Positions 6,404-29,532 of a DNA stretch of 32,000 nucleotides are shown in pieces (position 1 is the first letter of the stretch; each line of letters opens with the position of its first letter). The translations under genes and the position numbers were made by a program. The notes beneath the pieces were generated by a model, which searched no databases, was not told where the DNA came from, and was given only the letters and a program-made list of their open reading frames with translations. The DNA is from Candidatus Heimdallarchaeota archaeon (GTDB lineage: Archaea; Asgardarchaeota; Heimdallarchaeia; Heimdallarchaeales; Kariarchaeaceae): positions 30,001 to 62,000 of the forward strand of contig JASBSB010000001.1 of assembly GCA_030149205.1 (NCBI GenBank), read 5' to 3'.

Positions 6404-7933
6404 TTAGATATCCACCTTAAATTCTCTTGGCGCCTTGATATGTTCAAGAATCATCCTTTCCATTGTGTAGGGGGGTGCAGTCTCCATAATCTGTATAGCC
6501 TCATCAATTTTGTGTTCAGAGTTTGCCCATATAGTGATCAACGCATCTCCTTCATGAACAATATCCCCTCTTTGCTTATGTATTATTAACCCTGAATATT
6601 TGTCTTTAGGAGCTCCTGCTGCTCTGGCGATCAGTCCAACATTATAAGAATCAAGAGAATATATGGTATCTTCTGTGGTCGCCTTTATTACATGAGTGTA
6701 CCTTGCCTCCTGTACATCCTCACTTTTAATTTTAGGGTCACCACCTTGAGCCTCACAAATTTCCTTAAATTTATCTAATGCCTTTCCTGATGTCAGGATT
6801 TCTCTTGCAAGATTGTACCCCTCCCCAGGATTTGCCTTTCCCACCATCTCAAAAATAATACCTGACAGAGACACAGCCTTCTTTTCCAGAGAAAGAGAGG
6901 AGGTTTGACCTTCAAGAATCTGAATCCCCTCTTTTATTTCCAAGGCTGGACCTATCATTGTTCCTATTGGAGTATCTCCAGGAGAGACAATAGATTCTAT
7001 CTGTAACCCTAAATTAGATCCTAATGCAGCGAACTGAGAAGCCAGCTGTCTGGCATCTTCCCTTTGTGGAAGTTTCGAACCTTTTCCTGTTGGAAGGTCA
7101 ATCAACACATATTTTGAACCTGCGGCTTTTTTCTTTGACAAAATAGACGCTAACATCATCTCTTTGGGGTCAATCTTTACTTGCTTTACGACTCTTAGAA
7201 ATTTATCAGCTACCGCCCCTAACCCAATTTTTAAGCCATCAACCATACACCCATTGGTTTTTTCTACGATCTGAGCAGTCTCTTCAAGCGTAAACTCAAC
7301 CCCCATAACAACTTCAAGAGCATCTGAAGTTCCTGCTGGAGAAGTAATTGCTCTAGTTGAGACTTTAGGAATAGTCAACCCTGCCGCAGCGATTATGGGT
7401 ATCATAATTGGAGTAATTCTATTCCCAGCTATCCCCCCTATAGAGTGTTTATCAACTATGGGAGACCTTTTGTGAGTTAACTTTTTTGAGTGCTCTAGAA
7501 TTCCTGCTGCTACATCTGTGACTTCCGTTAGGTTCATACTATTGATTTCGATTGCTGTTCCAAATGTTGCTATATGTGAGTCAGCCACGTAACCGTACTC
7601 TATGGCATCAAGAAAATCTGTTATTTCCTGTTTGTTTAGAGCCTTACGTGCCATTTTTCTTCTAACCACCCGTGTATATTTCTCCAAACCTATCTCTTCA
7701 CATTCTACAACATCACCTTCCTTTAACCTAAGGTGTTTTGCAATCTCAGGAGAAATTGCTGCAAATGTAGGTGGTACAATGCTTGAACTCATTAGTCTAA
7801 ATCCCTGATTTCGATCGATAATCTTAATGAGGAGTCCTGGTTCAACATCTAAGGTTTTTAAGTAGTCTGGATGAACAATAAAATAATTTGGAGAGCCTCC
7901 AACGAGGTCTCTCAGTAAAACTTTGAATTCCAT
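6404..7933 (-). CDS. deoA: AMP phosphorylase (archaeal long-form thymidine phosphorylase family)
   Basis: 509 aa with the extra N-terminal domain typical of AMPpase; DKHSIGGIAGN, KVSTRAITSPAGTSD, SILSKKKAAG, RAAGAPKDK. Confidence 0.9.
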   Translation of the reverse strand: MEFKVLLRDLVGGSPNYFIVHPDYLKTLDVEPGLLIKIIDRNQGFRLMSSSIVPPTFAAISPEIAKHLRLKEGDVVECEEIGLEKYTRVVRRKMARKALNKQEITDFLDAIEYGYVADSHIATFGTAIEINSMNLTEVTDVAAGILEHSKKLTHKRSPIVDKHSIGGIAGNRITPIMIPIIAAAGLTIPKVSTRAITSPAGTSDALEVVMGVEFTLEETAQIVEKTNGCMVDGLKIGLGAVADKFLRVVKQVKIDPKEMMLASILSKKKAAGSKYVLIDLPTGKGSKLPQREDARQLASQFAALGSNLGLQIESIVSPGDTPIGTMIGPALEIKEGIQILEGQTSSLSLEKKAVSLSGIIFEMVGKANPGEGYNLAREILTSGKALDKFKEICEAQGGDPKIKSEDVQEARYTHVIKATTEDTIYSLDSYNVGLIARAAGAPKDKYSGLIIHKQRGDIVHEGDALITIWANSEHKIDEAIQIMETAPPYTMERMILEHIKAPREFKVDI

Positions 7934-8206
7934 ATGAACACCAATTATAATTTAAAGAATTAAGTAAAGTGTCTATTTATCTTTTCGGTTGTCTACGATT
8001 TGTATTGTGTCAGAAAAATTATGAAATTCAATTTAATAGTTCATTAGATCTAAGTTTGTTGTATAACGAAATTTTAATTGTTATTTACAAGTTTTTAATG
8101 ATTAATCTCTACTTTCAAGTTCTGAGACCTACTATGAATTAAGGAATACAATTGAAACGAAATACAAGTTTTAGAGGTTAAATTAAATTTTACAATGATG
8201 TTTGAA

Positions 8207-11200
8207 TTAATTTTTGATTAATTTTCTCTTTTTCATTAAGCTAACCACAGGTATCAGAACCACGGCAAGGATAGGTGTCCATCCAAAGCTCACAAAACTG
8301 ACTCCAGGTTTAGAGGTGACAGTTGACGAGGTTAACTCACCACCTTTTGATGTTGATGCAAAAACTGCACCACCAGATGAATATGCAGAGCTTGAACCCT
8401 GTCCAGTTGCTGAGGACTGACTTTGTTCTTGTGCTGCTGCTTCAGTGTTAAGTGACAGTAATGAACCTATTGTGGCACTAAATGTTGCACTAAACCCGAA
8501 CTTTGCGACAGTTCCGAAGGATGATTGTCCTTCTATCATGAACTCTATTAATGCGGGTGGAATATATCCTGAGCTCGTCTTAAGGGTCAGTGAAAGCGTT
8601 ATAGTAACACTTTCTCCAACTGCAAATGAAGTGTTTAGTAGGACCTGTGTATCTGTTCCAACAGTAGAAATACTAAGTGTACCCTTTGATGCTGAACTTG
8701 CAGTTACTGTAAAGTCAGCAAGAGGTAAGAACTGTGTAATTATTGCATGATCAGTTGCAGCATTTCCTATATTCTTTGCAGTTATGGTGAAAGTGAATTT
8801 TCCACTTGTGTCAGGTGTTGATGAGGATGTACTCAACTTAATTCTGGCCTCTGGGACTGCTGGGTTAAGACTAATGGTGGGCGGCAAAAGTAATGCCCCT
8901 ATAAGAGTTGAGACAGTAAATTCTTTTGTTTGTCCACCATATGGAAATGAGGTTACTCCACGATCGAAGAAATCAGTAGTCGTAGGTGCAACTTGACCCT
9001 TTTCAGATGTGAACTCAACAACTGCAAAGACTGGATGGTAGCCCACAAAGGTATTTGCACTTGGAACAGTATATGAAAATGAGGTGTTGGAATTTGCATT
9101 TAGGGTTCCAAGAGATTTTGTGTAAAACCTGTCAAATTCGGTTAGTTTCCAGTTTCTTCCTAGCTTGGCATGTACGAGATGAACCTTAACATCTGATGCA
9201 GCTGCATTTCCTGTATTGAAAACACTGACATCGAACGTGATGGGGTCTCCAACATTATAAACCTGTTTGTTATCTTTGAATCTTACAGTTGCGCCAATTA
9301 CTGCCTCATCATCAGCGATCTGAATATTCTGACCATTTGATAATCCGAAGAATTTGAAACCTTGTGCATCTTGCCAGGTAAACATTACTCCCATGGTAAT
9401 AAATGCGTCAACTGAAGCACCTAATGGGTTATGAATTGCATCAGTATAGAATGAGAGTGGGCGTCCAGAGAAGTTCTCTAATGCAAAAATGTATTGCATT
9501 AGCTCATTGTAATTTCTGGGGCTTGATTGTAAGGTCAATTTATTAAAGGAAATGCCTCCTGCAGAGGTTGTCCCCTTAACTAATTTCATATATGCGAGGT
9601 TATCACTAGCAGATGGAATGTTTGTTATCTGGAGCTGTAAATTTACAGATGCTCCAGCAGCAATGCTTGGAACGGTTGCCTCTAAAAATGTCATATTGAT
9701 TGGATTCACAGACCCAACAGTTCTTTGTACTGCTGTAAAGTTGACGGGTAACAATTTGAAAATTGGGATTTTATCATAGTAGGCCGCCAATGATGAGTTA
9801 AACGTTGCACTTAATGTAGAAGGTAACGAATCTCTTAGAGCTGTCCTCAATTTAGGAAAATCTGTGGCAGTTGTGATAGAGACTGCGTTTAATGCGGGTA
9901 CAATATAATTATACACCGCACTTATAGCTCCTTGAGGAGCACCATCAGGTGTGAGTAATGAGACACTAAAGTCAGCTCCTGTTATCGATTTAGAGTAAAT
10001 AGAGTAGGAAGTTGTTGTATTCCAATCTGCTAATTTTCCAGACGAGTTGTAATACCATCCATCCAGTGAAAGGAAATTAAAGTTGAAACTGTTTGATATT
10101 CCAGCGATTGTACTACTCACAGAAATATTAAAATTGGTAGTGAAAGTACTATTTAGAGTTATTCCAGATCTGATCCTGTACATACTCATATTAGCATTTA
10201 CAATTCTGTTGAAATCCTTCCCAAGTGGAAAGCTTAACTTGACGTTATTGGCAACTTCTGACCCAATATTTGTCAGATTAAAATTAGCTTCTAATGTACC
10301 CTGTGTGTTAAGCTTGGTTTGATTTATGCTTAAATGATTTTCCACCATTGGAAATGTCTTGGACATCCCCACTTTGAATGTGTATGTGTAATCAGGCGCA
10401 GTTGGTAGAGTATAATCACTTCTGAAGCTTCTTACATCCCAAAATGCCTCGCTAGTTACCTGAGGTAATGGGTTAGATGTTTGAGCTGGTGAAATTGCTA
10501 CGGTGGTAATTGGATAAGGAATATTTATTCTTACTCTGCTCAAACCTCTGATTGTGTCAGGGGTTGGTGCAGAACCAAAAATAGACTTAACACTGATTTT
10601 GTACTCTCCACTTGTTCCTGTGTTTACAATACCGTTAGGTGAAACAAAATATCCCCACGTACTTGCATAACTGTCTCCTCCGTAGTTTAACACACTATAG
10701 GCAAAACCAAACGGTTTGTTAGTGACTGAAATTGCGTTAAAAAGATCGCTGAAACCACCTGTCCTTATACCTTTGACGTCAGATAGGACTGAGGACGCAA
10801 TAGTATCATTTCCACCTGCGAACATGAAAACATATCCTTTTGCAGTTAGACCTACCGAGTAGGTGAGGTGCATTTTAACACTATATTTTGCCTCAAGAGC
10901 AGTTGCGGCTATGTTTGCCTGATCTACTGCCTGACTTAAAGTCATAGTTATTGGATAAAGTAAAGCCAATGACAATCCATCGGGAAAACTACTTGGGATT
11001 CTTTGAAGGTAGGTGTCGTATCCAGAGTTATTCACATAGGCAACCTGCCAGCTGACAGCAGTTTTAAATCCGTTGCTGCTTGGGCTGATTGCTGCTGGAA
11101 ATGAAGCTGAACCACCATGAACCACGATTCTGTTCAAGGTTGCAGTTCCCTTTCCTGCGATGACTGTTGCATATTCAAGTCCATAACTGGTTACAAGAGA

Positions 11201-11320
11201 ATTCTTTGACAGATCATTTTGTATAATCTGCTGATTCGCTGTTACCGAGCTAGAGAGCATTAATAACATCATCATCGCCGATAATATTACAGTAAGTTTT
11301 GATATTTTATTATTCATCAT
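8207..11320 (-). CDS. Large secreted, C-terminally anchored cell-surface (S-layer-like) glycoprotein with CARDB/Ig-like domains
   Basis: Signal peptide (MMNNKISKLTVILSAMMMLLML...VTA); NxG-type Ig/CARDB strands (NLTNIG, VFNTGNAAA, AKNIGNAA); many N-x-S/T sequons; Ser/Thr linker; PGVSF-TM-KKRK tail; AGGTGA SD. Confidence 0.8.
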   Translation of the reverse strand: MMNNKISKLTVILSAMMMLLMLSSSVTANQQIIQNDLSKNSLVTSYGLEYATVIAGKGTATLNRIVVHGGSASFPAAISPSSNGFKTAVSWQVAYVNNSGYDTYLQRIPSSFPDGLSLALLYPITMTLSQAVDQANIAATALEAKYSVKMHLTYSVGLTAKGYVFMFAGGNDTIASSVLSDVKGIRTGGFSDLFNAISVTNKPFGFAYSVLNYGGDSYASTWGYFVSPNGIVNTGTSGEYKISVKSIFGSAPTPDTIRGLSRVRINIPYPITTVAISPAQTSNPLPQVTSEAFWDVRSFRSDYTLPTAPDYTYTFKVGMSKTFPMVENHLSINQTKLNTQGTLEANFNLTNIGSEVANNVKLSFPLGKDFNRIVNANMSMYRIRSGITLNSTFTTNFNISVSSTIAGISNSFNFNFLSLDGWYYNSSGKLADWNTTTSYSIYSKSITGADFSVSLLTPDGAPQGAISAVYNYIVPALNAVSITTATDFPKLRTALRDSLPSTLSATFNSSLAAYYDKIPIFKLLPVNFTAVQRTVGSVNPINMTFLEATVPSIAAGASVNLQLQITNIPSASDNLAYMKLVKGTTSAGGISFNKLTLQSSPRNYNELMQYIFALENFSGRPLSFYTDAIHNPLGASVDAFITMGVMFTWQDAQGFKFFGLSNGQNIQIADDEAVIGATVRFKDNKQVYNVGDPITFDVSVFNTGNAAASDVKVHLVHAKLGRNWKLTEFDRFYTKSLGTLNANSNTSFSYTVPSANTFVGYHPVFAVVEFTSEKGQVAPTTTDFFDRGVTSFPYGGQTKEFTVSTLIGALLLPPTISLNPAVPEARIKLSTSSSTPDTSGKFTFTITAKNIGNAATDHAIITQFLPLADFTVTASSASKGTLSISTVGTDTQVLLNTSFAVGESVTITLSLTLKTSSGYIPPALIEFMIEGQSSFGTVAKFGFSATFSATIGSLLSLNTEAAAQEQSQSSATGQGSSSAYSSGGAVFASTSKGGELTSSTVTSKPGVSFVSFGWTPILAVVLIPVVSLMKKRKLIKN

Positions 11321-15429: not shown

Positions 15430-15759
15430 ATGGCAATGCAAACACCCGGAAGCATCATGAAATTCAACACTTTTTCCCCCGAGGATAAAGCGTATACCAT
15501 CAAGCTTCTGGCTGCTTCTGTTATAGGGATATTATGGGGAGTCTTTTCAGGTGTCTTTTATCTATCATCCAGCTTCGTAAGCGGATGGTTAGGTCTCGGT
15601 GTTTTCCTTTTGCAAGCGTTCCTTTTGGGAGTCTATGTCAAGAGCAAATATAAACTTAACAAAATGTCTCTTATGAAGGCTTTCAGACACTCAATCTTGA
15701 TGTCATTTTTTAGTTTTGTTTTCCTTTGGGTAACTGTGTTTAACTTTTATGTGAATTAA
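15430..15759 (+). CDS. Three-TM EMC6/Rab5ip-like membrane protein (putative partner of an Oxa1-superfamily insertase)
   Basis: About 109 aa with three hydrophobic helices. C-terminal SFFSFVFLWVTVFN resembles the EMC6 terminal helix (GLFTYVLFWTFLYG). Confidence 0.6.
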   Translation: MAMQTPGSIMKFNTFSPEDKAYTIKLLAASVIGILWGVFSGVFYLSSSFVSGWLGLGVFLLQAFLLGVYVKSKYKLNKMSLMKAFRHSILMSFFSFVFLWVTVFNFYVN

Positions 15760-20655: not shown

Positions 20656-21600
20656 TTAATAAATCTCTTCAGAGTCATCCCAAATGGTGTTAATTACCTG
20701 TTGAAGGGCTCTCTCGTCATCTTGAACATCTATTATCGGAATATTATGTTCTTTGCATTGATTCACAAGATACTTTTGAATTTCTCTGATATTTTCGAAT
20801 AGTTCAGAGTATTTGGTACCTCTTTTCAAATTTGCCTCACGTTTTCTAAGTCTTGCCATGTGTTCGTCTTCATCATTTAGTGTCAGTGCAATTTGAATTA
20901 TATTTGGGAAGTTGAGTACTTTTTTACTTAATATTCCCGGGAGAATATGGACACCCTCTATAATTAAAACTTGATTATCTTGAATACACCTCAAGATTGC
21001 AGCTTCTATTCCAGTCATTACCAATCTGGATTGCTCTTCAAATGCCAAAATGTTTTTTGTGGTGTTTGGGAGAGGGGGATCAATGATTGTTGGTGCTCCT
21101 GCGTAGGAGGAGGTGTGTAAAGAAGGCATTAAAGTTTCAGAAAAAACAGACCTCATTACCTCTCGAATTGAGTCAGTTCCAATAAGAAGCCTAATTCCCA
21201 AGCGATTTGAAAGGTGTTCAGCCAAAGTTGATTTTCCAATACCTGTGACTCCCCCAATTAGGATTACTAGGGGAGAAATGGGTTCTAATTTTTCTCTTAA
21301 TATACGAATTCTCTGGGCTTGTTTTTTTGAACGTTCATCATACCACAACTGGGTTAAAGTCATTAACTCATTTGTTGTAATGGAACTGATATTTAGTTTT
21401 AATAGCTGACCTGCAATTCCAAGTGAATCTTCATATGCCTGATCATAGGTTAAACCTATTGCAAGCAGTATATTAGCAAGATAACCAACTGAGAACGGTG
21501 ACTTTTTGTTAGATCTACTTATAACCTCAATCTTGTTTATGTCATTAAAGTCAACTGGTTCGGTTCCTTCCTTCTCGTTTGAGGAGATATCACTAGTCAA
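20656..21600 (-). CDS. pgk2: 2-phosphoglycerate kinase family protein (ATP-cone-like N-terminus plus P-loop)
   Basis: PFSVGYLANIL, GGVTGIGKST, TDSIREVMR, LHTSSY, IEGVHILPG. Confidence 0.8.
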   Translation of the reverse strand: MTSDISSNEKEGTEPVDFNDINKIEVISRSNKKSPFSVGYLANILLAIGLTYDQAYEDSLGIAGQLLKLNISSITTNELMTLTQLWYDERSKKQAQRIRILREKLEPISPLVILIGGVTGIGKSTLAEHLSNRLGIRLLIGTDSIREVMRSVFSETLMPSLHTSSYAGAPTIIDPPLPNTTKNILAFEEQSRLVMTGIEAAILRCIQDNQVLIIEGVHILPGILSKKVLNFPNIIQIALTLNDEDEHMARLRKREANLKRGTKYSELFENIREIQKYLVNQCKEHNIPIIDVQDDERALQQVINTIWDDSEEIY

Positions 21601-21648
21601 TTTATAAAATATTTCTCGACAACTTTATAATGTTTCTTCTATACAAAT

Positions 21649-21664
21649 ATTATTACGTAATAAT
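21649..21664. promoter_or_regulatory. Perfect 16-bp palindrome ATTATTACGTAATAAT in the divergent intergenic region; candidate operator
   Basis: Sequence read directly; the operator role is inferred from position only. Confidence 0.4.
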
Positions 21665-21681
21665 CCTAGAGTTGCTTTAAG

Positions 21682-22599
21682 TTGAGTTCGAAAATAATGG
21701 TTCTTGGAAATGGATTTGAATATGCTTTCAGTCGTGGTCTAATTGCCAAGGAATTGAACTCTAAGGGACTGGATTATAATTTAGGATATGAGATAGCAAA
21801 ACAGACCCAAAAGATTCTTCTCAATAGAAAGAACCGTCAAATAACAGAAAAAGAGCTCGATAAACTGATTGAAGACCAAGCTCTTTCCCATCTGAATGAA
21901 GGTATCTCAATTAAAAATTATATGATCATTCGAAGGTGGTTACGAAGTGGGACACCAATTATCATTTTGCTTTCTGGGTCACCTGGTGCAGGAAAACAAC
22001 CATTAGGTAAAAAAATTGCGACTCGCTTGGGAATTTCTCAGGTCATTCCATCAGATATGATTGTCGCTTTACTCAGAAATCTCATATCAGCAAGATTGGC
22101 ACCAGAGCTCCATGCTGAGAGTTACAAGGCTTCAGAACATTTAAAACCTAAATTTGCGGTTAATTACGACCGAGTAATCATAGGGTATGAAGAACATACA
22201 AAGTATGTTGTTGAAGCAATTGAATCCATGATACTTAGAGCATTGAAAGAAGATAATAGCATTGTAATACATGGAGAGCACTTGGCTCCCAATTTGTTTA
22301 AGAAAGAGATATTAAGCCATCCCTTTGTCTTTCATATAACTATTCATCAAAGTGACCCTAAAATTCATCTTAAACAGTTGCTTGAGTCCTTAGATCAAGA
22401 ACAACAGTATGAAACAACAAAAGAGTTTCCACAGATTCGGAAGATCCAGGAGTTTTTGAAAAAGCAAGCTGAAACTCTTGAACTTCCAATATTTTCAACC
22501 CAAAAGGATTCCAATGACCTATTTGACCCTGTTATTGAGTATATAATAGAAACACTTGAGAAGAGATTAAATTCATCGGTCAGTCCAAACTCATCTTAA
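21682..22599 (+). CDS. 2-phosphoglycerate kinase-like paralogue with a degenerate Walker A
   Basis: AFSRGLIAKEL, SGSPGAGKQP, LHAESY, IGYEEH, HGEHLAP; collinear with the neighbouring paralogue. Confidence 0.75.
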   Translation: MSSKIMVLGNGFEYAFSRGLIAKELNSKGLDYNLGYEIAKQTQKILLNRKNRQITEKELDKLIEDQALSHLNEGISIKNYMIIRRWLRSGTPIIILLSGSPGAGKQPLGKKIATRLGISQVIPSDMIVALLRNLISARLAPELHAESYKASEHLKPKFAVNYDRVIIGYEEHTKYVVEAIESMILRALKEDNSIVIHGEHLAPNLFKKEILSHPFVFHITIHQSDPKIHLKQLLESLDQEQQYETTKEFPQIRKIQEFLKKQAETLELPIFSTQKDSNDLFDPVIEYIIETLEKRLNSSVSPNSS

Positions 22600-22605
22600 A
22601 TAATT

Positions 22606-23478
22606 CTAAAGATATCTAAATATTATCGCCAGTGTTATCCCTCCAACTCCTGCAATAAAGGTTGCAAACAGAAATGTTAGAAGATCTTGTTTATCATACT
22701 TTTTGGAGCTAAGTTTATTCAAATGGTTTTCGATTCGACGAATTGACCTATCCAGGTCCCTAAAAAGACCACTTGTGTCAACACTGCTTGGTTTTGGGTT
22801 TGCTCCATCTACTTCCTCAACGAGATCCAACCACCTATTTAAAGCCCCAAAATCTTCAGTAGAGAGGTTTGCCTTATGTGCATTAAGATCATTCCTTATC
22901 AATTCTACTTTTTCTCGAGTTATCTTTGGTGCATAGAATAATGGTTTAGATAGTTCTTGAATCTCTAGTTCAGGAAATTTAGATTTTAGATATACCGCTA
23001 ACCCAAATTCCAATCCATCAATAACCTCATAGTGAATCTTAAGTGCTGAATTGTTTCTAACAACGTAGACACCAAAATCTAAATTATTTAGAGTTAAAGT
23101 TTCCTGATACTTTAATGGATCGATGACAATAGCAATCGCTTCTGGAAACAAATTTTGATAGTTTGATTGGGTGTTAATATCTGTTCCTGACATAAAGGAG
23201 GTTAATCCTGGGTGAGTGTGCCACCACCCAACGATTGTTTTGTTATCAGTTCTGTTGCTCACCTTCATAACTGCATTTACTAGCGCCTGATCTGACATTG
23301 TAACGTGAACAGATGTTCCCTCTTGTTCTCCCACCTCAATTTCATCCACATATAACACGCCTTCATCTAAATGTCCTATTAGAAGACCCGCAGTCTCTTT
23401 CCCAGGGTGAGTCTTATCAAAATGAATCATTTGTGCAACAGCTTTTGCCTTAATTTTAACGAGAGGTGGTGTACTCAT
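22606..23478 (-). CDS. MPN+/JAMM metalloisopeptidase (Rpn11/CSN5-like) with a helical C-terminal region and a C-terminal TM anchor
   Basis: KETAGLLIG, GWWHTHPGLTSFMSGTDINTQ (H-x-H-x7-S-x2-D), AIVIDP; C-terminal LLTFLFATFIAGVGGITLAIIF-RYL. Confidence 0.88.
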   Translation of the reverse strand: MSTPPLVKIKAKAVAQMIHFDKTHPGKETAGLLIGHLDEGVLYVDEIEVGEQEGTSVHVTMSDQALVNAVMKVSNRTDNKTIVGWWHTHPGLTSFMSGTDINTQSNYQNLFPEAIAIVIDPLKYQETLTLNNLDFGVYVVRNNSALKIHYEVIDGLEFGLAVYLKSKFPELEIQELSKPLFYAPKITREKVELIRNDLNAHKANLSTEDFGALNRWLDLVEEVDGANPKPSSVDTSGLFRDLDRSIRRIENHLNKLSSKKYDKQDLLTFLFATFIAGVGGITLAIIFRYL

Positions 23479-23557
23479 CTAACTATTATTTTTCTATAAA
23501 GTAAATAAAAGTCTCTAATATATTTTGCCTAATTTATTAATATTTCATAAAACAGTA

Positions 23558-25105
23558 TCATGATGTTAACCCACGCTTCGCCTTTTCATAAACCTTGTCT
23601 GGGTTTGAGTAATATTCAGCAATCTGGGCAGAGACGTCTCTGAAATGTCTGATTTGTTTTTTGGCAAGCCATCTTAGCACAACCTCCCTTCTTTCAATTT
23701 CATCCCAGCACTCTTGATCACTCATACCTGTGGTGTTTTTGATTTTTTCAATAAGATATGATCTTCCAAAGAAGGAGAAGTTATCCTTGGTTGCGTTCCA
23801 TGAGTACAGCTTATTTGTAAGTAGTTGTTTAGTTACGGGGTCGAGGTCTATTATTTCAGTCACCTCTATAGACCTTCTCGCAAATTTACCTTGGGTTCTT
23901 ACTTTCTTCTGTATGTGAATTAAATCCAGAGATTTGATCATTGCCCTCGGTACGTTCATTGGTGCAGACTCTAGTCTTCCAATAACACCTTGAACACTGT
24001 CACCGTGTATGGTTCCCATCCCTGCATGTCCTGTTGACATTGCCTGGAAAAGAGTATATGCCTCGGCACCACGAATTTCACCCACTATGATGAAGTCAGG
24101 CCTTTGTCTCATTGCAGCTCTAAGTAGATCGAACATTGAGATCTCTCCTCTTTGAGTTCCATCACTGCTTTTGTTTCCGAAACCACCTCTGGAAACTGAT
24201 GGAATCCAGTTTTCCAGCCCAATGTTTAATTCCGCGGTATCTTCAATAGAAACAACTTTCAGATCAGGTTTCAACAGCATAGACAGAGCATTTAGAAATG
24301 ATGTTTTTCCTGCTGCTGTTCCTCCAGCAATTAGCAGACTCATTTGATATTGTATAATGAACCAATAATATGCAGCGATTTTACTGTCAACTGTGTTTGT
24401 TATAATTAGATCTGTTATTGTCCAAGGGTCTGCCCTGAATCTTCTGATTGTGAAGGTCGAGCCTTTTTGGGTCACTTCCCTTCCAAAAGAGAGTTGGAGA
24501 CGAGAACCATCAGGAAGGGACGCATCTAGTAATGGTTGAGCGATAGATACATGTCTCCCAGATCGCTGGGCTAATTTAATTATAAAAGAATCTAATTCTG
24601 TTTCATCAGTAAACATTATGTTAGAGGCAATTGACTCAAAATCACGGTGCCAGATATAAATTGGGACATTTAAACCATCACATGAGATATCTTCTATTAG
24701 ATGATCATGTAGGAGGGGGTCTATGATACCATATCCTATTAAATCTCTTTCAATGTAATACATTAATTTAGCCTGTTGCTCAGCTGTAAGTTTAATCCCA
24801 TACGTTTTGATTGTGTCGGTAACCATTTTTTTCAAATAGTCTTGAGCCTTTCCCTCGTTTGAAAGAACAGTGAAATCCACAGCCAATTCTTCAATTAAAA
24901 CATCTTTAATGAAGTTAAAATATTTTTCCTCAGTTGTATCAAGTTGATCCTCCATAACTTGATAGGTGGTTCTTTTGCTTACAGGGTCAGTCTGTATTAG
25001 TGCATAAGAATATGGTGGTTTCAGGGGATAATTCCCCTGTAAAATTGGCATAGTGCTTTCAACACTTGCCAGATCATCTAGTTTGGGCATCTCAAATTCC
25101 GACAT
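23558..25105 (-). CDS. Type IV pilus/secretion ATPase (VirB11/TadA/ArlI family)
   Basis: Walker A GGTAAGKTS, Asp box IEDTAEL, Walker B IIVGEIRG, His box GHAGMGTIH, IEDISCDG. Confidence 0.95.
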   Translation of the reverse strand: MSEFEMPKLDDLASVESTMPILQGNYPLKPPYSYALIQTDPVSKRTTYQVMEDQLDTTEEKYFNFIKDVLIEELAVDFTVLSNEGKAQDYLKKMVTDTIKTYGIKLTAEQQAKLMYYIERDLIGYGIIDPLLHDHLIEDISCDGLNVPIYIWHRDFESIASNIMFTDETELDSFIIKLAQRSGRHVSIAQPLLDASLPDGSRLQLSFGREVTQKGSTFTIRRFRADPWTITDLIITNTVDSKIAAYYWFIIQYQMSLLIAGGTAAGKTSFLNALSMLLKPDLKVVSIEDTAELNIGLENWIPSVSRGGFGNKSSDGTQRGEISMFDLLRAAMRQRPDFIIVGEIRGAEAYTLFQAMSTGHAGMGTIHGDSVQGVIGRLESAPMNVPRAMIKSLDLIHIQKKVRTQGKFARRSIEVTEIIDLDPVTKQLLTNKLYSWNATKDNFSFFGRSYLIEKIKNTTGMSDQECWDEIERREVVLRWLAKKQIRHFRDVSAQIAEYYSNPDKVYEKAKRGLTS

Positions 25106-25182: not shown

Positions 25183-26238
25183 CTAGAAAATTTCATCTAA
25201 AGGTTTATTTGATGGCTTAATCATTGCCAGATTTTCAATGGTTTGTTCTTCAAGCAAAAACAGGGCAAATTGAATTTTTTGGTCCCATTCTTCTGTTAAT
25301 CCCTGAGAGGCTTTATCTAGAGCATCCATTAACGCCCATTGTGATATAAAAAATGCTAATGGATAACCACTGGGATAAAGATGTTCGAACTTAGTTTCTG
25401 AGAGTTGAAAGAATTTTTGACTGTAACCAGTTAAAAATTCAGCAATGTTTTTTGCAGTAATTTGAATATCAGAGGTAGATGCAAATTCAATAAAGAGTTC
25501 TTGCCCAAAAAATGTGCCAATATCCTCCATTCTATCAAAATTTCCTGCACTCATGAATTCAGGGTCAATAATCCACATTTTCTCTATTTGTTCATGTTTA
25601 CTAAGATTCACCATGACATTACTTTGATGAAAATCAGAAAATGCGTCACATCCCTCATTTTTCTTGCCTATGTAACGTAGGGCTTTTCCCAAACCTGTTG
25701 ATATTGCAGGTTCGTGACCTGAAGCAGCAAAATTCTTTCCAATTATCCTTGAAAAATTTTTGTAAAGGTCTCTATCCACTGTTTTTAAGGAACCACCGTG
25801 GATTATAGCCAGCAACATTCCAGCCAACATATATTTCTTTGGGACGGGTGGACTTTCATCAAAGTTAACCCCATTGATCCCCTGATAGACCATTATGGGA
25901 GGGTTGTAAGTAGTTGAATAAATGACCTTTGGAATACCAAATTCTGGGTGGGTTAAAAATCTATTCTCTAAAAGCACTGCGTTTTTTAATTCCTTTAATA
26001 CCGATACTTTATCTTCTGCAATTTTAATTGCTATAAACACTGGAAACTGATTCTTTTTTGTCTCTACAGTAACATTTGTTAAATAAACAGTTCCACTGGC
26101 ACCGGTTTTTTCTTTGACTTGTGAAATTTTAATGTTTACAATTTTCGAATTGTCATCGAAGTGAAGGAGAGCTTGCTCCCTGTAATAGAATTTGAATGTG
26201 TCTACCAGTTCAATCAGGAAGTTGTCCTCTATTTGCAT
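25183..26238 (-). CDS. Protein-kinase-like fold phosphotransferase (APH/choline kinase/Bud32-like)
   Basis: Gly loop TGASGTVY, IAIK, KELKN, LLAIIHG, catalytic loop SDFHQSNVM, IIDPE. Confidence 0.75.
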   Translation of the reverse strand: MQIEDNFLIELVDTFKFYYREQALLHFDDNSKIVNIKISQVKEKTGASGTVYLTNVTVETKKNQFPVFIAIKIAEDKVSVLKELKNAVLLENRFLTHPEFGIPKVIYSTTYNPPIMVYQGINGVNFDESPPVPKKYMLAGMLLAIIHGGSLKTVDRDLYKNFSRIIGKNFAASGHEPAISTGLGKALRYIGKKNEGCDAFSDFHQSNVMVNLSKHEQIEKMWIIDPEFMSAGNFDRMEDIGTFFGQELFIEFASTSDIQITAKNIAEFLTGYSQKFFQLSETKFEHLYPSGYPLAFFISQWALMDALDKASQGLTEEWDQKIQFALFLLEEQTIENLAMIKPSNKPLDEIF

Positions 26239-28230: not shown

Positions 28231-29532
28231 TCAAAATATTTGGACAGAATAAGGTAATCCCCATTTACTTTGAAAGATTAACCAGAATGATAGCAATTGG
28301 AATATCAAACTTGTCAATATAGAAATTCCAAAAGCTATCGGATATCTCTGTTGGTTCTTTGATGTTATTTTTGACTGACCAACACCGAGCGTAAATACAA
28401 AAAAGAAGAAACTAAGAAACATCGGAATTGAGACTAGGAATAGAAAGTTTAGAGAAGAGATCTGTCTGGCTGCAAATTCACTGCTATCTGGTGTAAATCC
28501 AACAAAGACTTGATATTGATACCCAGCGATGACTTGGGCAGGTATAAGAACCAACATTGAGACACTACTTATAATCATAGTTGATTTCAAGAATTCTTTG
28601 CTTAAATTACCAGTCACAAGTCCGACGACTAATGGTTGAATCAAAAGCCAACTTAACAGTACACTTAGGTACATCAGACTAACCCCAGTCCAAATTTGAC
28701 CATGACCTACTGAAGCATCAACTGCTTGCTCCGATGAGACACTGATAACCTGAAAGTTCAAAAAATAAAAGAACCCTCTTCCATAACGAATTACTGAGTA
28801 CAGCAGAGTTGCAATTAGTGGAACACTCAATAGAAACCAACCGGGAAGAATCTCTGCATAACCCCCTCTAGTTGGCCTAAAAATAAAATCTTCAATAAAC
28901 CTTAGGAGTTTGTCAACTGTCCCAATTTTCTGTATCAAATAATAAGTAATTAAAGCAGGAACTATTAGCATTGCTGCAATGATGAGTCCAGTAATAACCA
29001 GTGTGACAGGGTTTGCAAGATTAAGCAATAATGGAGACAAAATAAATTGATCTGAGTTTATGAGGATCAAGGGGTAATAAAATGATGAGAATAACATAGC
29101 TAAGAATGGTATGCTAAGTTTAACTAGGTTAGGCTTCTTTTCAACTGTGTTATACCATATCCTTTCATTGACAATATCATCGAGAACTGGTTCAAAATCA
29201 GAGAGGATTTGCCCATCTATGGGTTTGTTTTCATATTTTGTCTGGAAGCTATTAATAATATCATTTAATAGCTCTTGAGCATCATCCTCATCCATTCGTT
29301 TATCAATTGTCAAAACAAAGAGAAGACTCTCTTGTCTTTCCTTAAATATGGTTCGAACTTCCTGCAAATCTAAGTTCTCTATTTTCTCACCTTCTGTCTC
29401 AGTGGTCATAGAATAAATTGCACTGATCAAACCTGCAGTTAAGGATACATCAGTCTCGACATTTTTTTTCCCATATTCTTTTGAAAAGTAAATGGTACCA
29501 TAAGTGGTCATGACAATGAGAGTCTTAATCAT
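28231..29532 (-). CDS. Longin-domain protein fused to an approximately 7-TM membrane domain (possibly Yip1-like)
   Basis: The N-terminal ~125 aa (TLIVMTTYGTIYFSKEY...LTAGLISAIYSM...LLFVLTID...LLNDIINSFQTKY...DFEPVLDDI) follows the longin beta-beta-alpha-beta-beta-beta-alpha-alpha pattern; seven hydrophobic segments follow. Confidence 0.75.
   Translation of the reverse strand: MIKTLIVMTTYGTIYFSKEYGKKNVETDVSLTAGLISAIYSMTTETEGEKIENLDLQEVRTIFKERQESLLFVLTIDKRMDEDDAQELLNDIINSFQTKYENKPIDGQILSDFEPVLDDIVNERIWYNTVEKKPNLVKLSIPFLAMLFSSFYYPLILINSDQFILSPLLLNLANPVTLVITGLIIAAMLIVPALITYYLIQKIGTVDKLLRFIEDFIFRPTRGGYAEILPGWFLLSVPLIATLLYSVIRYGRGFFYFLNFQVISVSSEQAVDASVGHGQIWTGVSLMYLSVLLSWLLIQPLVVGLVTGNLSKEFLKSTMIISSVSMLVLIPAQVIAGYQYQVFVGFTPDSSEFAARQISSLNFLFLVSIPMFLSFFFFVFTLGVGQSKITSKNQQRYPIAFGISILTSLIFQLLSFWLIFQSKWGLPYSVQIF

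Follow-up and report, generated by a model that had tools for sequence, protein, structure and literature searches.

A predicted tail-anchored Rpn11-like JAMM peptidase in Heimdallarchaeia and its kinase-fold gene neighbour

Archaeal Rpn11-like deubiquitinases (DUBs) have so far been treated as soluble enzymes of ubiquitin operons, in the biochemistry of Caldiarchaeum as well as in studies of the Asgard ubiquitin-ESCRT system. The window analysed here (the whole stretch of 32,000 nucleotides) encodes a JAMM protein of this kind that ends in a hydrophobic helix and is surrounded by kinase-like and pilus-like genes. This raises the question of where in the cell such an enzyme would work, and on what. 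The reading that we prefer, with a probability of about 60%, is that of a membrane-tethered ubiquitin peptidase/isopeptidase predicted from its sequence to face the cytosol. Domain, motif, fold, anchor, conservation and the gene content of the genome were computed, and the features of the locus are collected in Table 1.

Table 1. Features of the JAMM gene and its neighbours, in window coordinates.
Feature	Position	Strand	Basis or remark
2-Phosphoglycerate-kinase (2PGK)-like paralogue b, 314 aa, conserved neighbour	20656..21600	-	NF003259 E=1.4e-74, below cut-off
2PGK-like paralogue a, 305 aa, Walker A GSPGAGKQ	21682..22599	+	NF003259 E=3.1e-54, below curated cut-off
Whole ORF, predicted tail-anchored MPN+ (JAMM) metalloprotease	22606..23478	-	ATG start, 290 aa + stop
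Three-residue tail R-Y-L after anchor	22609-22617	-	ORF end
Hydrophobic tail-anchor segment, L266-F287	22618..22683	-	Kyte-Doolittle scan
One long helix, residues 235-289, stalk into membrane segment	22612..22776	-	AlphaFold2 model
Two conserved helices, residues 188-223	22810..22917	-	pLDDT about 90
Variable linker, predicted disordered, residues 168-183	22930..22977	-	pLDDT below 50; gappy, unconserved columns in alignment A1
MPN/JAB catalytic domain, residues 5-165	22984..23466	-	PF01398; pLDDT above 90; Foldseek to 6fnn
Zinc-binding core H87-T-H89-x7-S97-x2-D100	23179..23220	-	All invariant
Ins-1-like segment E51-V59 (EQEGTSVHV)	23302..23328	-	Aligned to CsRpn11 and human PSMD14
Catalytic Glu28 of JAMM motif	23395..23397	-	Invariant column in alignment A1
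AT-rich spacer, 79 nt, upstream of ATG	23479..23557	-	TATA-like strings
FlaI/PilB3-type secretion ATPase	23558..25105	-	PF00437 E=1.2e-37; NF058587 E=5.7e-121, below cut-off
APH/choline-kinase-fold protein, 351 aa, conserved partner	25183..26238	-	Catalytic core intact

The N-terminus of the JAMM protein lined up with those of 27 homologues (alignment A1). The protein matched the Pfam families JAB (PF01398, E=1.8e-13, 50.7 bits against a cut-off of 22.5) and Prok-JAB (PF14464, E=3.8e-9). The complete MPN+ site that the first-pass annotation had read from the letters was borne out, as every position of the motif (E28 ... H87-T-H89-x7-S97-x2-D100) was present and invariant in 28/28 homologues. 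The two local likenesses to eukaryotic Rpn11 that it had pointed out (EQEGTSVHV/PQSGTGVSV and SGTDINTQ/SGVDINTQ) fell in aligned columns against human Rpn11/PSMD14 (phmmer, PDB chain 5vfp_c). In phmmer the Ins-1-like segment also paired with GEQYGTPAYV of CsRpn11, and G50, Q52 and V59 were conserved in this region of alignment A1. Judged from sequence, these results support an MPN+ enzyme of the Rpn11/CSN5/AMSH kind with a complete site. Overall, the protein was nearer to the archaeal CsRpn11 than to eukaryotic Rpn11; CsRpn11 was its closest characterised match, with a phmmer E of 2.9e-25, a Foldseek TM of 0.88-0.90 by target and 32-33% identity. Moreover, in the MPN tree, whose deep support is weak, the eukaryotic Rpn11/CSN5 rows joined the soluble, operon-type Asgard DUBs, apart from the anchored clade. 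This gives weak support to the view that some other Asgard protein, rather than the anchored one, is closest to eukaryotic Rpn11.

In the AlphaFold2 model (mean pLDDT 84.5), residues 1-165 form the MPN domain (pLDDT above 90) and residues 168-183 a disordered linker; two shorter helices (188-200 and 207-223) and a long one (235-289) follow. The MPN fold matched CsRpn11, Rpn11, CSN5 and BRCC36 with a Foldseek probability of 1.00. Both shorter helices had a pLDDT of about 90, and the putative coiled coil LDRSIRRIENHLNKL turned out to be part of the long helix. Relatives of the helical region were sought with residues 180-290 in the Protein Atlas, which gave no usable match, and by Foldseek against AFDB clusters, which returned generic MPN proteins and nothing specific.

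Hydrophobic segments were called on the simple Kyte-Doolittle (KD) scale in 19-residue windows, rather than with a trained topology predictor. The best 19-mer was 269-287 (mean 2.31), and elsewhere no window exceeded 0.85, so a signal peptide and a second transmembrane (TM) segment are absent on this scale. The same arrangement was present in 28/28 homologues: one hydrophobic segment only, placed right at the C-terminus (19-mer mean 2.06-3.16) followed by a tail of 0-5 residues. This agrees with the single C-terminal TM segment, three-residue tail and lack of a signal peptide described before. The genome encodes a homologue of the tail-anchor factor Get3/ArsA (E=3.9e-80) and two insertase homologues of the EMC3/TMCO1 (Oxa1) type. 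From the family-wide C-terminal anchor without a signal peptide we infer membrane insertion and orientation: the protein would be made in the cytosol as a zinc metalloprotease, its C-terminal helix would drive post-translational insertion, and a helical stalk of some 30 residues would carry the catalytic domain on the cytosolic side. The membrane-tethered, cytosol-facing topology proposed earlier is therefore also the predicted one here. The segment might instead be a buried helix of a soluble helical-bundle complex, with no membrane span, as eukaryotic MPN+ subunits (cf. Rpn11, CSN5, BRCC36) assemble into complexes through C-terminal helices. A Glu in mid-segment in 16/28 homologues (Gln in two more), which is unusual for a simple anchor, would suit such a helix. 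However, the strong hydropathy at the very end of all 28 proteins, the mostly polar or basic residues ahead of the segment, the lack of a charged residue in the window's own anchor, and a genome without an MPN- partner make this very improbable.

Next, we analysed the ubiquitin system of the assembled genome, which is 93.5% complete. Ubiquitin, E1, E2-like, RING-like and ESCRT genes were all present, as the first-pass annotation had proposed to check. The ubiquitin gene adjoins an E1 on contig 2, while the anchored JAMM lies on contig 4; an ESCRT cluster (UEV/E2-like, Vps22 and two Snf7) is on contig 8. Heimdall ubiquitin binds the UEV domain of ESCRT-I (PMC9192718). The genome's ubiquitin is a precursor ending in GG-LEY, and six orthologues from family f1 carry variable extensions after an invariant TRTEGG, so a Gly-Gly peptidase is required. 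The anchored JAMM was the sole PF01398 match in the assembled genome: all JAB queries from relatives matched only this protein, and searches of the assembly for an MPN- (Rpn8) partner or second PF01398 gene, and for an operon-type soluble JAB, found none. With 93.5% completeness, a further gene of the Rpn11 type could lie in the part that is not assembled. In the same-genus genome G046, a canonical Ub-Ub-E1-E2-JAB-RING operon includes a separate soluble JAB of 228 aa. Since the congener's operon holds this different, soluble paralogue, the anchored JAMM was rejected as the ubiquitin-operon deubiquitinase, and it could serve another substrate.

On the preferred reading, the anchored JAMM would mature the ubiquitin precursor (…GG-LEY), strip conjugates close to the membrane, or both, with ubiquitin the likely substrate. 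It may instead act on another ubiquitin-like modifier (SAMP/MoaD/ThiS/Urm1 type) as a membrane-tethered desampylase. A second ThiF-type E1 on contig 7 would fit such a modifier, and archaeal JAMM1 enzymes may be promiscuous (PMC6043591). We consider this quite improbable, as the genome already encodes a JAMM1/desampylase-type protein of 143 aa, its other JAB (contig 2; NF041370 E=1.4e-17; PfJAMM1 5ld9 E=1e-8), and the anchored JAMM is far nearer to the ubiquitin-specific CsRpn11 than to JAMM1, with no JAMM1 chain among its PDB matches at E<=0.001.

The genes around the JAMM bear on its role as well. The JAMM has the FlaI/PilB3-type ATPase on one side and two T2SSF genes on the other in the window, in loci L004/L005 and in genomes of the same genus, and a link to this pilus machinery had been suggested. 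Pilus genes next to the JAMM are confined to the genus of the window and a small number of relatives (window, L004/L005, G043-G046). Only in the window's subclade does the ATPase separate the kinase-like gene from the JAMM, as an insertion outside the conserved module, and a kinase-JAMM gap of roughly 1.9 kb in G043-G046 fits the same insertion. The ATPase was absent from L001, L003, L015 and L016, and no pilus genes were found near these loci, near L017 or near the adjacent kinase-JAMM pairs of families f3 and f1; in most genomes the JAMM follows directly behind the kinase-fold gene without pilus genes nearby. Because the flanking is confined to one subclade, the pilus link is unsupported as a general feature. 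Between the window and L004, identity was 83% for the ATPase vs. 45% for the JAMM, so the two have not evolved in step. It is class III signal peptidases, and not JAMM enzymes, that mature pilins. We therefore give hardly any credence to a role of the JAMM in regulating or processing the type IV pilus-like machinery.

A promoter of its own, also suggested before, is possible for the JAMM gene. The TATA-like strings do exist in the spacer ('ttttattta' 24-32 nt and 'tttata' 17-22 nt before the ATG), but they carry little weight because the spacer is so AT-rich. A scan of the 79 nt for sigma-70-type promoters and terminators gave no signal and is uninformative for an archaeon.

The APH/choline-kinase (ChoK)-fold gene was the conserved partner. 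It lies immediately upstream of the JAMM and in the same direction in 27/31 genomes of family f3 and 6/11 of f1, and one gene away in four further f1 genomes and in the window; three f3 genomes gave weak, paralogue-level matches only, to both the kinase and the JAMM queries. The fold was predicted confidently, G46, G49, K72, D202, H204, N207 and D225 were invariant and E83 nearly so, and one fold match was the peptide kinase LxmK. A complex predicted for JAMM residues 1-262 (A1) and the kinase-fold neighbour (A2) scored 0.00 in a run without controls, and weighs neither way. The two 2PGK-like genes neighbour the JAMM in only part of the class (several families). Orthologues of paralogue a adjoin it in L003, L004, L015 and L016, and L003 has the 2PGK-like pair upstream of the JAMM. 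The genes downstream of the JAMM in L001 and L003 were tested as 2PGK-like homologues and rejected in both cases.

That the conserved neighbours are kinases, with an unexplained link to ubiquitin, counts against the preferred reading, and so does the position of the JAMM away from ubiquitin-system genes. The JAMM and the kinase-fold protein (with the 2PGK-like proteins in some lineages) might act together in a membrane-associated pathway without ubiquitin, for example one in which the trimming of a peptide or another beta-grasp carrier is tied to phosphorylation. The frequent co-directional pairing, the intact catalytic core, the LxmK match and the lack of ubiquitin, E1 or E2 beside the JAMM in any locus examined argue for such a pathway. 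Against it, the characterised JAMMs that are this close (CsRpn11, Rpn11, AMSH and CSN5) all cut after a ubiquitin-like Gly-Gly (PMC6043591). Moreover, family f7 keeps the anchored JAMM without a kinase match at E<=1e-5, the two genes are not adjacent in f2 and f4, and no conserved gene for an alternative substrate lies nearby. We regard this pathway as unlikely, and any role of the kinase-fold protein would be conjectural.

The anchored JAMM was present in five families of the class (f1-f4 and f7), and anchored forms were also found among Odin/Loki-type (Odin/Promethearchaeota) Asgard proteins. In the MPN tree, 41 of the 49 anchored rows fell in one group of 48 (SH-aLRT 92). We know of no studied relative with a membrane anchor. 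A literature search found no account of a membrane-anchored archaeal JAMM; most subscription journals lay outside its coverage and absence is unproven. An MPN+ domain with a tail anchor is a new architecture in a heavily studied enzyme class. Tentatively, and well short of even odds, these proteins may form a distinct, mostly monophyletic clade of Asgard tail-anchored Rpn11-like DUBs (Heimdall, Odin and Loki-type) with operonic coupling to the APH/ChoK kinase in Heimdallarchaeia. Such a DUB might be the membrane-resident enzyme for editing and recycling in the archaeal ubiquitin-ESCRT sorting pathway, comparable to AMSH/Doa4 as a functional forerunner or analogue, and in genomes like the present one it might in addition be the sole ubiquitin maturase. 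If the sole maturase did sit at the membrane, ubiquitin activation would be gated there.

Some Heimdallarchaeia apparently have the anchored JAMM as their sole enzyme of the Rpn11 type. A conserved membrane-fixed paralogue would place the removal or maturation of ubiquitin at the site where ESCRT-I recognises ubiquitin, in close archaeal relatives of eukaryotes, and it offers a testable handle on whether ubiquitin-dependent membrane sorting predates eukaryotes. The strongly conserved pairing with a kinase-fold protein is also brought to notice.

Among known systems, the JAMM1 desampylases (PfJAMM1 5ld9, HvJAMM1, AfJAMM) share the JAMM chemistry, but at about 130-145 aa they are soluble proteins of minimal size. 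AMSH/STAMBP and Sst2 (E about 1e-13) resemble the anchored JAMM as JAMM enzymes that would act at the membrane on ubiquitylated cargo, in a setting where the ubiquitin-ESCRT gene set is present. However, AMSH reaches the membrane by MIT/ESCRT-III and STAM binding and not through a TM helix, and the Pfam scan of the anchored JAMM showed no MIT or other AMSH-specific domain; the analogy would be functional only. Eukaryotic Rpn11/PSMD14 and CSN5 share the MPN+ core, the Ins-1 region, identities around the zinc site and the order of MPN domain then C-terminal helices. They are soluble and depend on both an MPN- partner and a PCI/MPN lid, whereas here the assembled genome holds a single PF01398 gene and the protein's C-terminal helix is predicted to be an anchor (KD 2.31). 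The operon-type soluble Asgard JAB belongs to the same superfamily and resembles eukaryotic Rpn11 to the same degree (E about 1e-14). It is nonetheless a different paralogue, which is soluble, has an N-terminal extension, sits in the ubiquitin operon and falls on the opposite side of the MPN tree.

CsRpn11 of Candidatus Caldiarchaeum subterraneum (PDB 6fjv, 6fju, 6fnn and 6fno) has the same MPN+ motif and Ins-1-like segment. It acts alone, cuts the ubiquitin precursor precisely behind the Gly-Gly and removes ubiquitin from conjugates; a separate small JAMM of Caldiarchaeum is restricted to SAMPs (Fuchs et al. 2018, PMC6043591). Both systems have a cognate ubiquitin with residues after Gly-Gly (here GG-LEY), and, like the host of CsRpn11, this genome has a separate small JAMM (143 aa). 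By contrast, CsRpn11 is soluble and about 200 aa long, and the anchored JAMM adds a helical region, a stalk and a predicted tail anchor. The CsRpn11 gene lies inside a Ub/E1/E2/RING operon, whereas the anchored JAMM is on a different contig from Ub-E1 and is paired with the kinase-fold gene.

Every sequence and fold criterion places the 290-aa protein in the JAMM/MPN+ family. Pfam JAB (PF01398) gave an above-threshold match (E=1.8e-13), and Prok-JAB matched as well. The complete catalytic site described in the first-pass annotation (E28, H87-T-H89, S97 and D100) showed no substitution across 28 aligned homologues; when phmmer aligned the protein with PSMD14, both short resemblances to human Rpn11 fell in matched columns. 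An AlphaFold2 model built from the 28-sequence alignment (mean pLDDT 84.5) consisted of a confident MPN domain (residues 1-165), a variable disordered linker (168-183), two short conserved helices (188-223), a loop and one long helix (235-289). The best solved sequence relative was CsRpn11, a soluble Rpn11 homologue from Caldiarchaeum subterraneum (E=2.9e-25), followed by eukaryotic Rpn11 (~5e-15), AMSH/Sst2 (~1e-13), CSN5 (~2e-10) and BRCC36 (2e-5); Foldseek concurred (TM 0.88-0.90 by target against the CsRpn11 structures 6fnn and 6fno). The G+C content of the window is approximately 36%, and homologues of its proteins place it in Heimdallarchaeia, those with names including Heimdallarchaeota LC_2, Kariarchaeaceae and Heimdallarchaeum.

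Coordinates of the features in the window, its genome and compared loci
Feature	Location	Strand	Remark
JAMM ORF	window 22606..23478	-	ATG start, 290 aa
APH/choline-kinase-type protein, 351 aa	window 25183-26238	-	assigned from predicted fold
Two 2-phosphoglycerate-kinase (2PGK)-like paralogues	window 20656-22599		divergent, ~30% identical to each other
FlaI/PilB3-type ATPase	window 23558-25105		83% identical to L004:8366-9913
109-aa ORF	window 15430-15759	+	no Pfam match
433-aa protein	window 28231-29532	-	weak N-terminal match, first longin domain of FUZ/MON1/HPS1 (E=0.00035, below cut-off)
Ubiquitin, 81 aa	contig 2		directly 5' of 325-aa E1
Ubiquitin (GG-LEY)-E1 pair	G000 (window's assembly) contig 2, L011:1237-3461		followed by convergent gene for 314-aa protein
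Second E1, ThiF-type	window's genome
E2/UEV-like genes, three	window's genome
RING-like matches	window's genome		weak, tblastn
UEV/E2-like gene, Vps22 and two Snf7 genes	contig 8		cluster
Ubl-Ubl-E1-E2-JAB-RING operon	L036 (contig 22 of G046, same genus) 6928-11273

In a Kyte-Doolittle scan, hydropathy peaked in the 19-mer 269-287 (mean 2.31), within a run from L266 to F287 that is followed by three residues (RYL), in agreement with the C-terminal span and short tail proposed earlier. Every other segment scored 0.85 or less; therefore there is no signal peptide, as had been claimed, and no second span. In all 28 aligned homologues the C-terminal 19-mer scored 2.06-3.16, the tail measured 0-5 residues and a second hydrophobic segment above 1.3 was absent, so the anchor is characteristic of the family rather than an accident of one hydrophobic terminus. 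We also considered that the C-terminal helix might form a bundle outside the membrane. At one aligned position of the helix, 16 of the 28 members carry a mid-segment Glu and two a Gln; the window protein lacks both and has a small insertion (AGVGG) there. These features may point to helix-helix contacts inside the membrane. An insertion route for tail-anchored proteins exists, since a Get3/ArsA homologue (E=3.9e-80) and two insertase homologues of the EMC3/TMCO1 type are encoded in the window's genome.

A homologue was found in 83/83 species of the class (protein search, one genome per species). Among the 18 matches sampled for their form, the best matches of families f2, f3, f4 and f7 carried the C-terminal anchor, those of f5 and f6 were soluble (~300 aa), and second matches in f1, f3, f5 and f7 were soluble; the window's own family, f1, is anchored as well (hydropathy scan of aligned homologues). 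When 1.84 billion cluster representatives were searched exhaustively with a profile, approximately 16 full-length clusters of this family were listed, and the anchor was present in 41 of the best 150 clusters. Shorter anchored forms (219-245 aa) occur in Odinarchaeum yellowstonii and in Odinarchaeota/Promethearchaeota MAGs; one such cluster is also labelled with a bacterial MAG, which may reflect a binning error. Another membrane-bound MPN+ arrangement was observed among the closest relatives (P0058, P0113, P0116, P0117, P0132, P0137, P0139, P0140, P0167 and P0181): the MPN domain is N-terminal, a single TM follows near residue 170-200, and a long C-terminal domain (up to 761 aa), presumably extracellular, completes the protein.

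The phylogeny proposed in the first-pass annotation was approached with a quick tree inferred by maximum likelihood from 151 MPN domains (LG+G4, with SH-aLRT as the only support measure), after exclusion of rows with fewer than 110 matched profile positions or without the H-x-H…S-x-x-D motif. Most anchored proteins grouped together (41/49 within one 48-row group, support 92), and the window protein sits in a 15-row clade in which all members are anchored. Short CsRpn11-like archaeal proteins fell on the side of the anchored clade. Rows with human-Rpn11 peptides fell in the opposite half, as did CSN5-like rows, the operon-type Asgard JABs, which are soluble, and the soluble f5 proteins. This placement is provisional because support for the deepest branches is only 78.

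Read along the minus strand, the window encodes the 351-aa protein, the FlaI/PilB3-type ATPase, the JAMM protein, the two 2PGK-like genes (the first on the plus strand), two T2SSF genes and putative pilin genes. A link to the pilus machinery had been put forward as a possibility from this setting, and a pilus-specific role was considered here; the same order, pilus genes included, recurs at locus L004/L005. The link did not hold elsewhere: pilus genes are absent from L015 (Heimdall LC_2) and L016, where a 346-aa gene, the JAMM gene and 2PGK-like genes a and b follow each other, from L003, where the same four genes are adjacent in a different order, and from L001 (Heimdallarchaeum aukensis), where only a 345-aa gene precedes the JAMM gene. 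Coordinates of whole-genome matches to both proteins were compared (the genomes are related and the counts not independent). A homologue of the 351-aa protein lay directly upstream of the JAMM gene on the same strand in 27/31 f3 genomes, three more giving weak, paralogue-level matches only, to both queries. In f1 it was directly upstream in 6/11 genomes and ~1.9 kb away, a gap large enough for the ATPase, in four more and the window. It was not adjacent in f2 and f4, and in f7, where the anchored protein is present, it was not found at E<=1e-5. Gene order across families therefore suggests the kinase-fold protein, not the pilus machinery, as the conserved functional partner. The ATPase is 83% identical between the window and L004 genomes and the JAMM, kinase-fold and 2PGK-like proteins only 40-46%; the ATPase and its neighbours evolve at very different rates.

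No Pfam or NCBIfam match was obtained for the 351-aa protein. Its fold, predicted with high confidence (pLDDT 89, pTM 0.88), aligns at probability 1.00 with structures of APH, choline-kinase, MTR-kinase, PsiK and LxmK. The residues G46, G49, K72, D202, H204, N207 and D225 are invariant in its family and E83 nearly so; they correspond to the catalytic core of the APH/choline-kinase superfamily, which is intact. The family is so far restricted to Heimdallarchaeia records, and further matches of paralogue level (21-32% identity) are present in the majority of class genomes outside f7. Both 2PGK-like proteins score far under the NCBIfam 2PGK cut-off and also resemble mevalonate-3-phosphate 5-kinase; in the 305-aa copy, Gln replaces the Walker-A Ser/Thr (GSPGAGKQ). 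The most serious of the four alternatives considered is that the substrate of the anchored protein is not ubiquitin and is tied to the kinase-fold protein, because this pairing is the strongest contextual signal and action on ubiquitin leaves it unexplained.

Ubiquitin as the substrate draws on the rest of the genome (3.31 Mb, 12 contigs, 93.5% complete), in which the ubiquitin, E1, E2/UEV-like and ESCRT genes that the first-pass annotation proposed looking for were present, the RING-like matches being weak. Its ubiquitin is single-copy, conserved in 77/83 genomes (51-86% identity) and ends in …TRTEGG-LEY; TRTEGG is kept in the six f1 orthologues read, with variable extensions (YGLNF, YGQFI, YGNF, SL, VI and 16 residues). 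These residues beyond Gly-Gly indicate a precursor that needs to be cut after Gly-Gly. In Caldiarchaeum, CsRpn11 makes this cut and strips ubiquitin from conjugates, and the small CsJAMM acts on SAMPs only (PMC6043591); a SAMP-type substrate was considered for the anchored protein too. In the window's genome PF01398 matches the anchored protein alone, which is also the sole target there of 18 JAB queries from relatives; one other JAB protein (143 aa) is of the JAMM1/desampylase type. The same-genus genome G046 also has a canonical operon in which two Ubl genes are accompanied by E1, E2 and RING genes and by one for a soluble 228-aa JAB, and thus the anchored enzyme is a paralogue separate from the operon deubiquitinase. 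Neither this operon nor its JAB was found in the 93.5% complete window assembly, so the anchored enzyme is the only Rpn11-type candidate there for ubiquitin maturation, and ubiquitin-system content appears to vary within one genus. The 314-aa protein beside the ubiquitin-E1 pair gave weak zinc-ribbon and Yip1-domain matches (the latter E=0.0013, below cut-off); the locus recalls the Ub/Yip1/Rab-like clusters reported for Hodarchaeia (bioRxiv 10.1101/2023.07.25.550441).

From the anatomy of the protein and the CsRpn11 precedent, we infer that the enzyme would be translated in the cytosol, and that its C-terminal helix would be captured and then inserted, leaving a very short tail outside. The zinc site, carried on the flexible linker and a ~30-residue stalk, could sample the cytosolic face of the membrane and would cut after Gly78 of ubiquitin; its substrates would be the precursor, conjugates on proteins that lie in or are recruited to the membrane, or both of these. 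An AMSH-like role in cargo deubiquitination is conceivable, since Heimdallarchaeia have a Ub-binding ESCRT-I (PMC9192718).

On this entirely computational assessment, the protein is of moderate to high interest for how ubiquitin signalling and membrane trafficking evolved. In public records the family carries no names beyond 'Mov34/MPN/PAD-1 family protein', 'proteasome lid subunit RPN8/RPN11' or 'hypothetical', and no description of a membrane-anchored archaeal JAMM was found in the searchable literature. Lacking an MPN- partner and ending in a membrane anchor, the anchored protein is no orthologue of Rpn11 as a lid subunit; from CsRpn11 it differs in both architecture and gene context.
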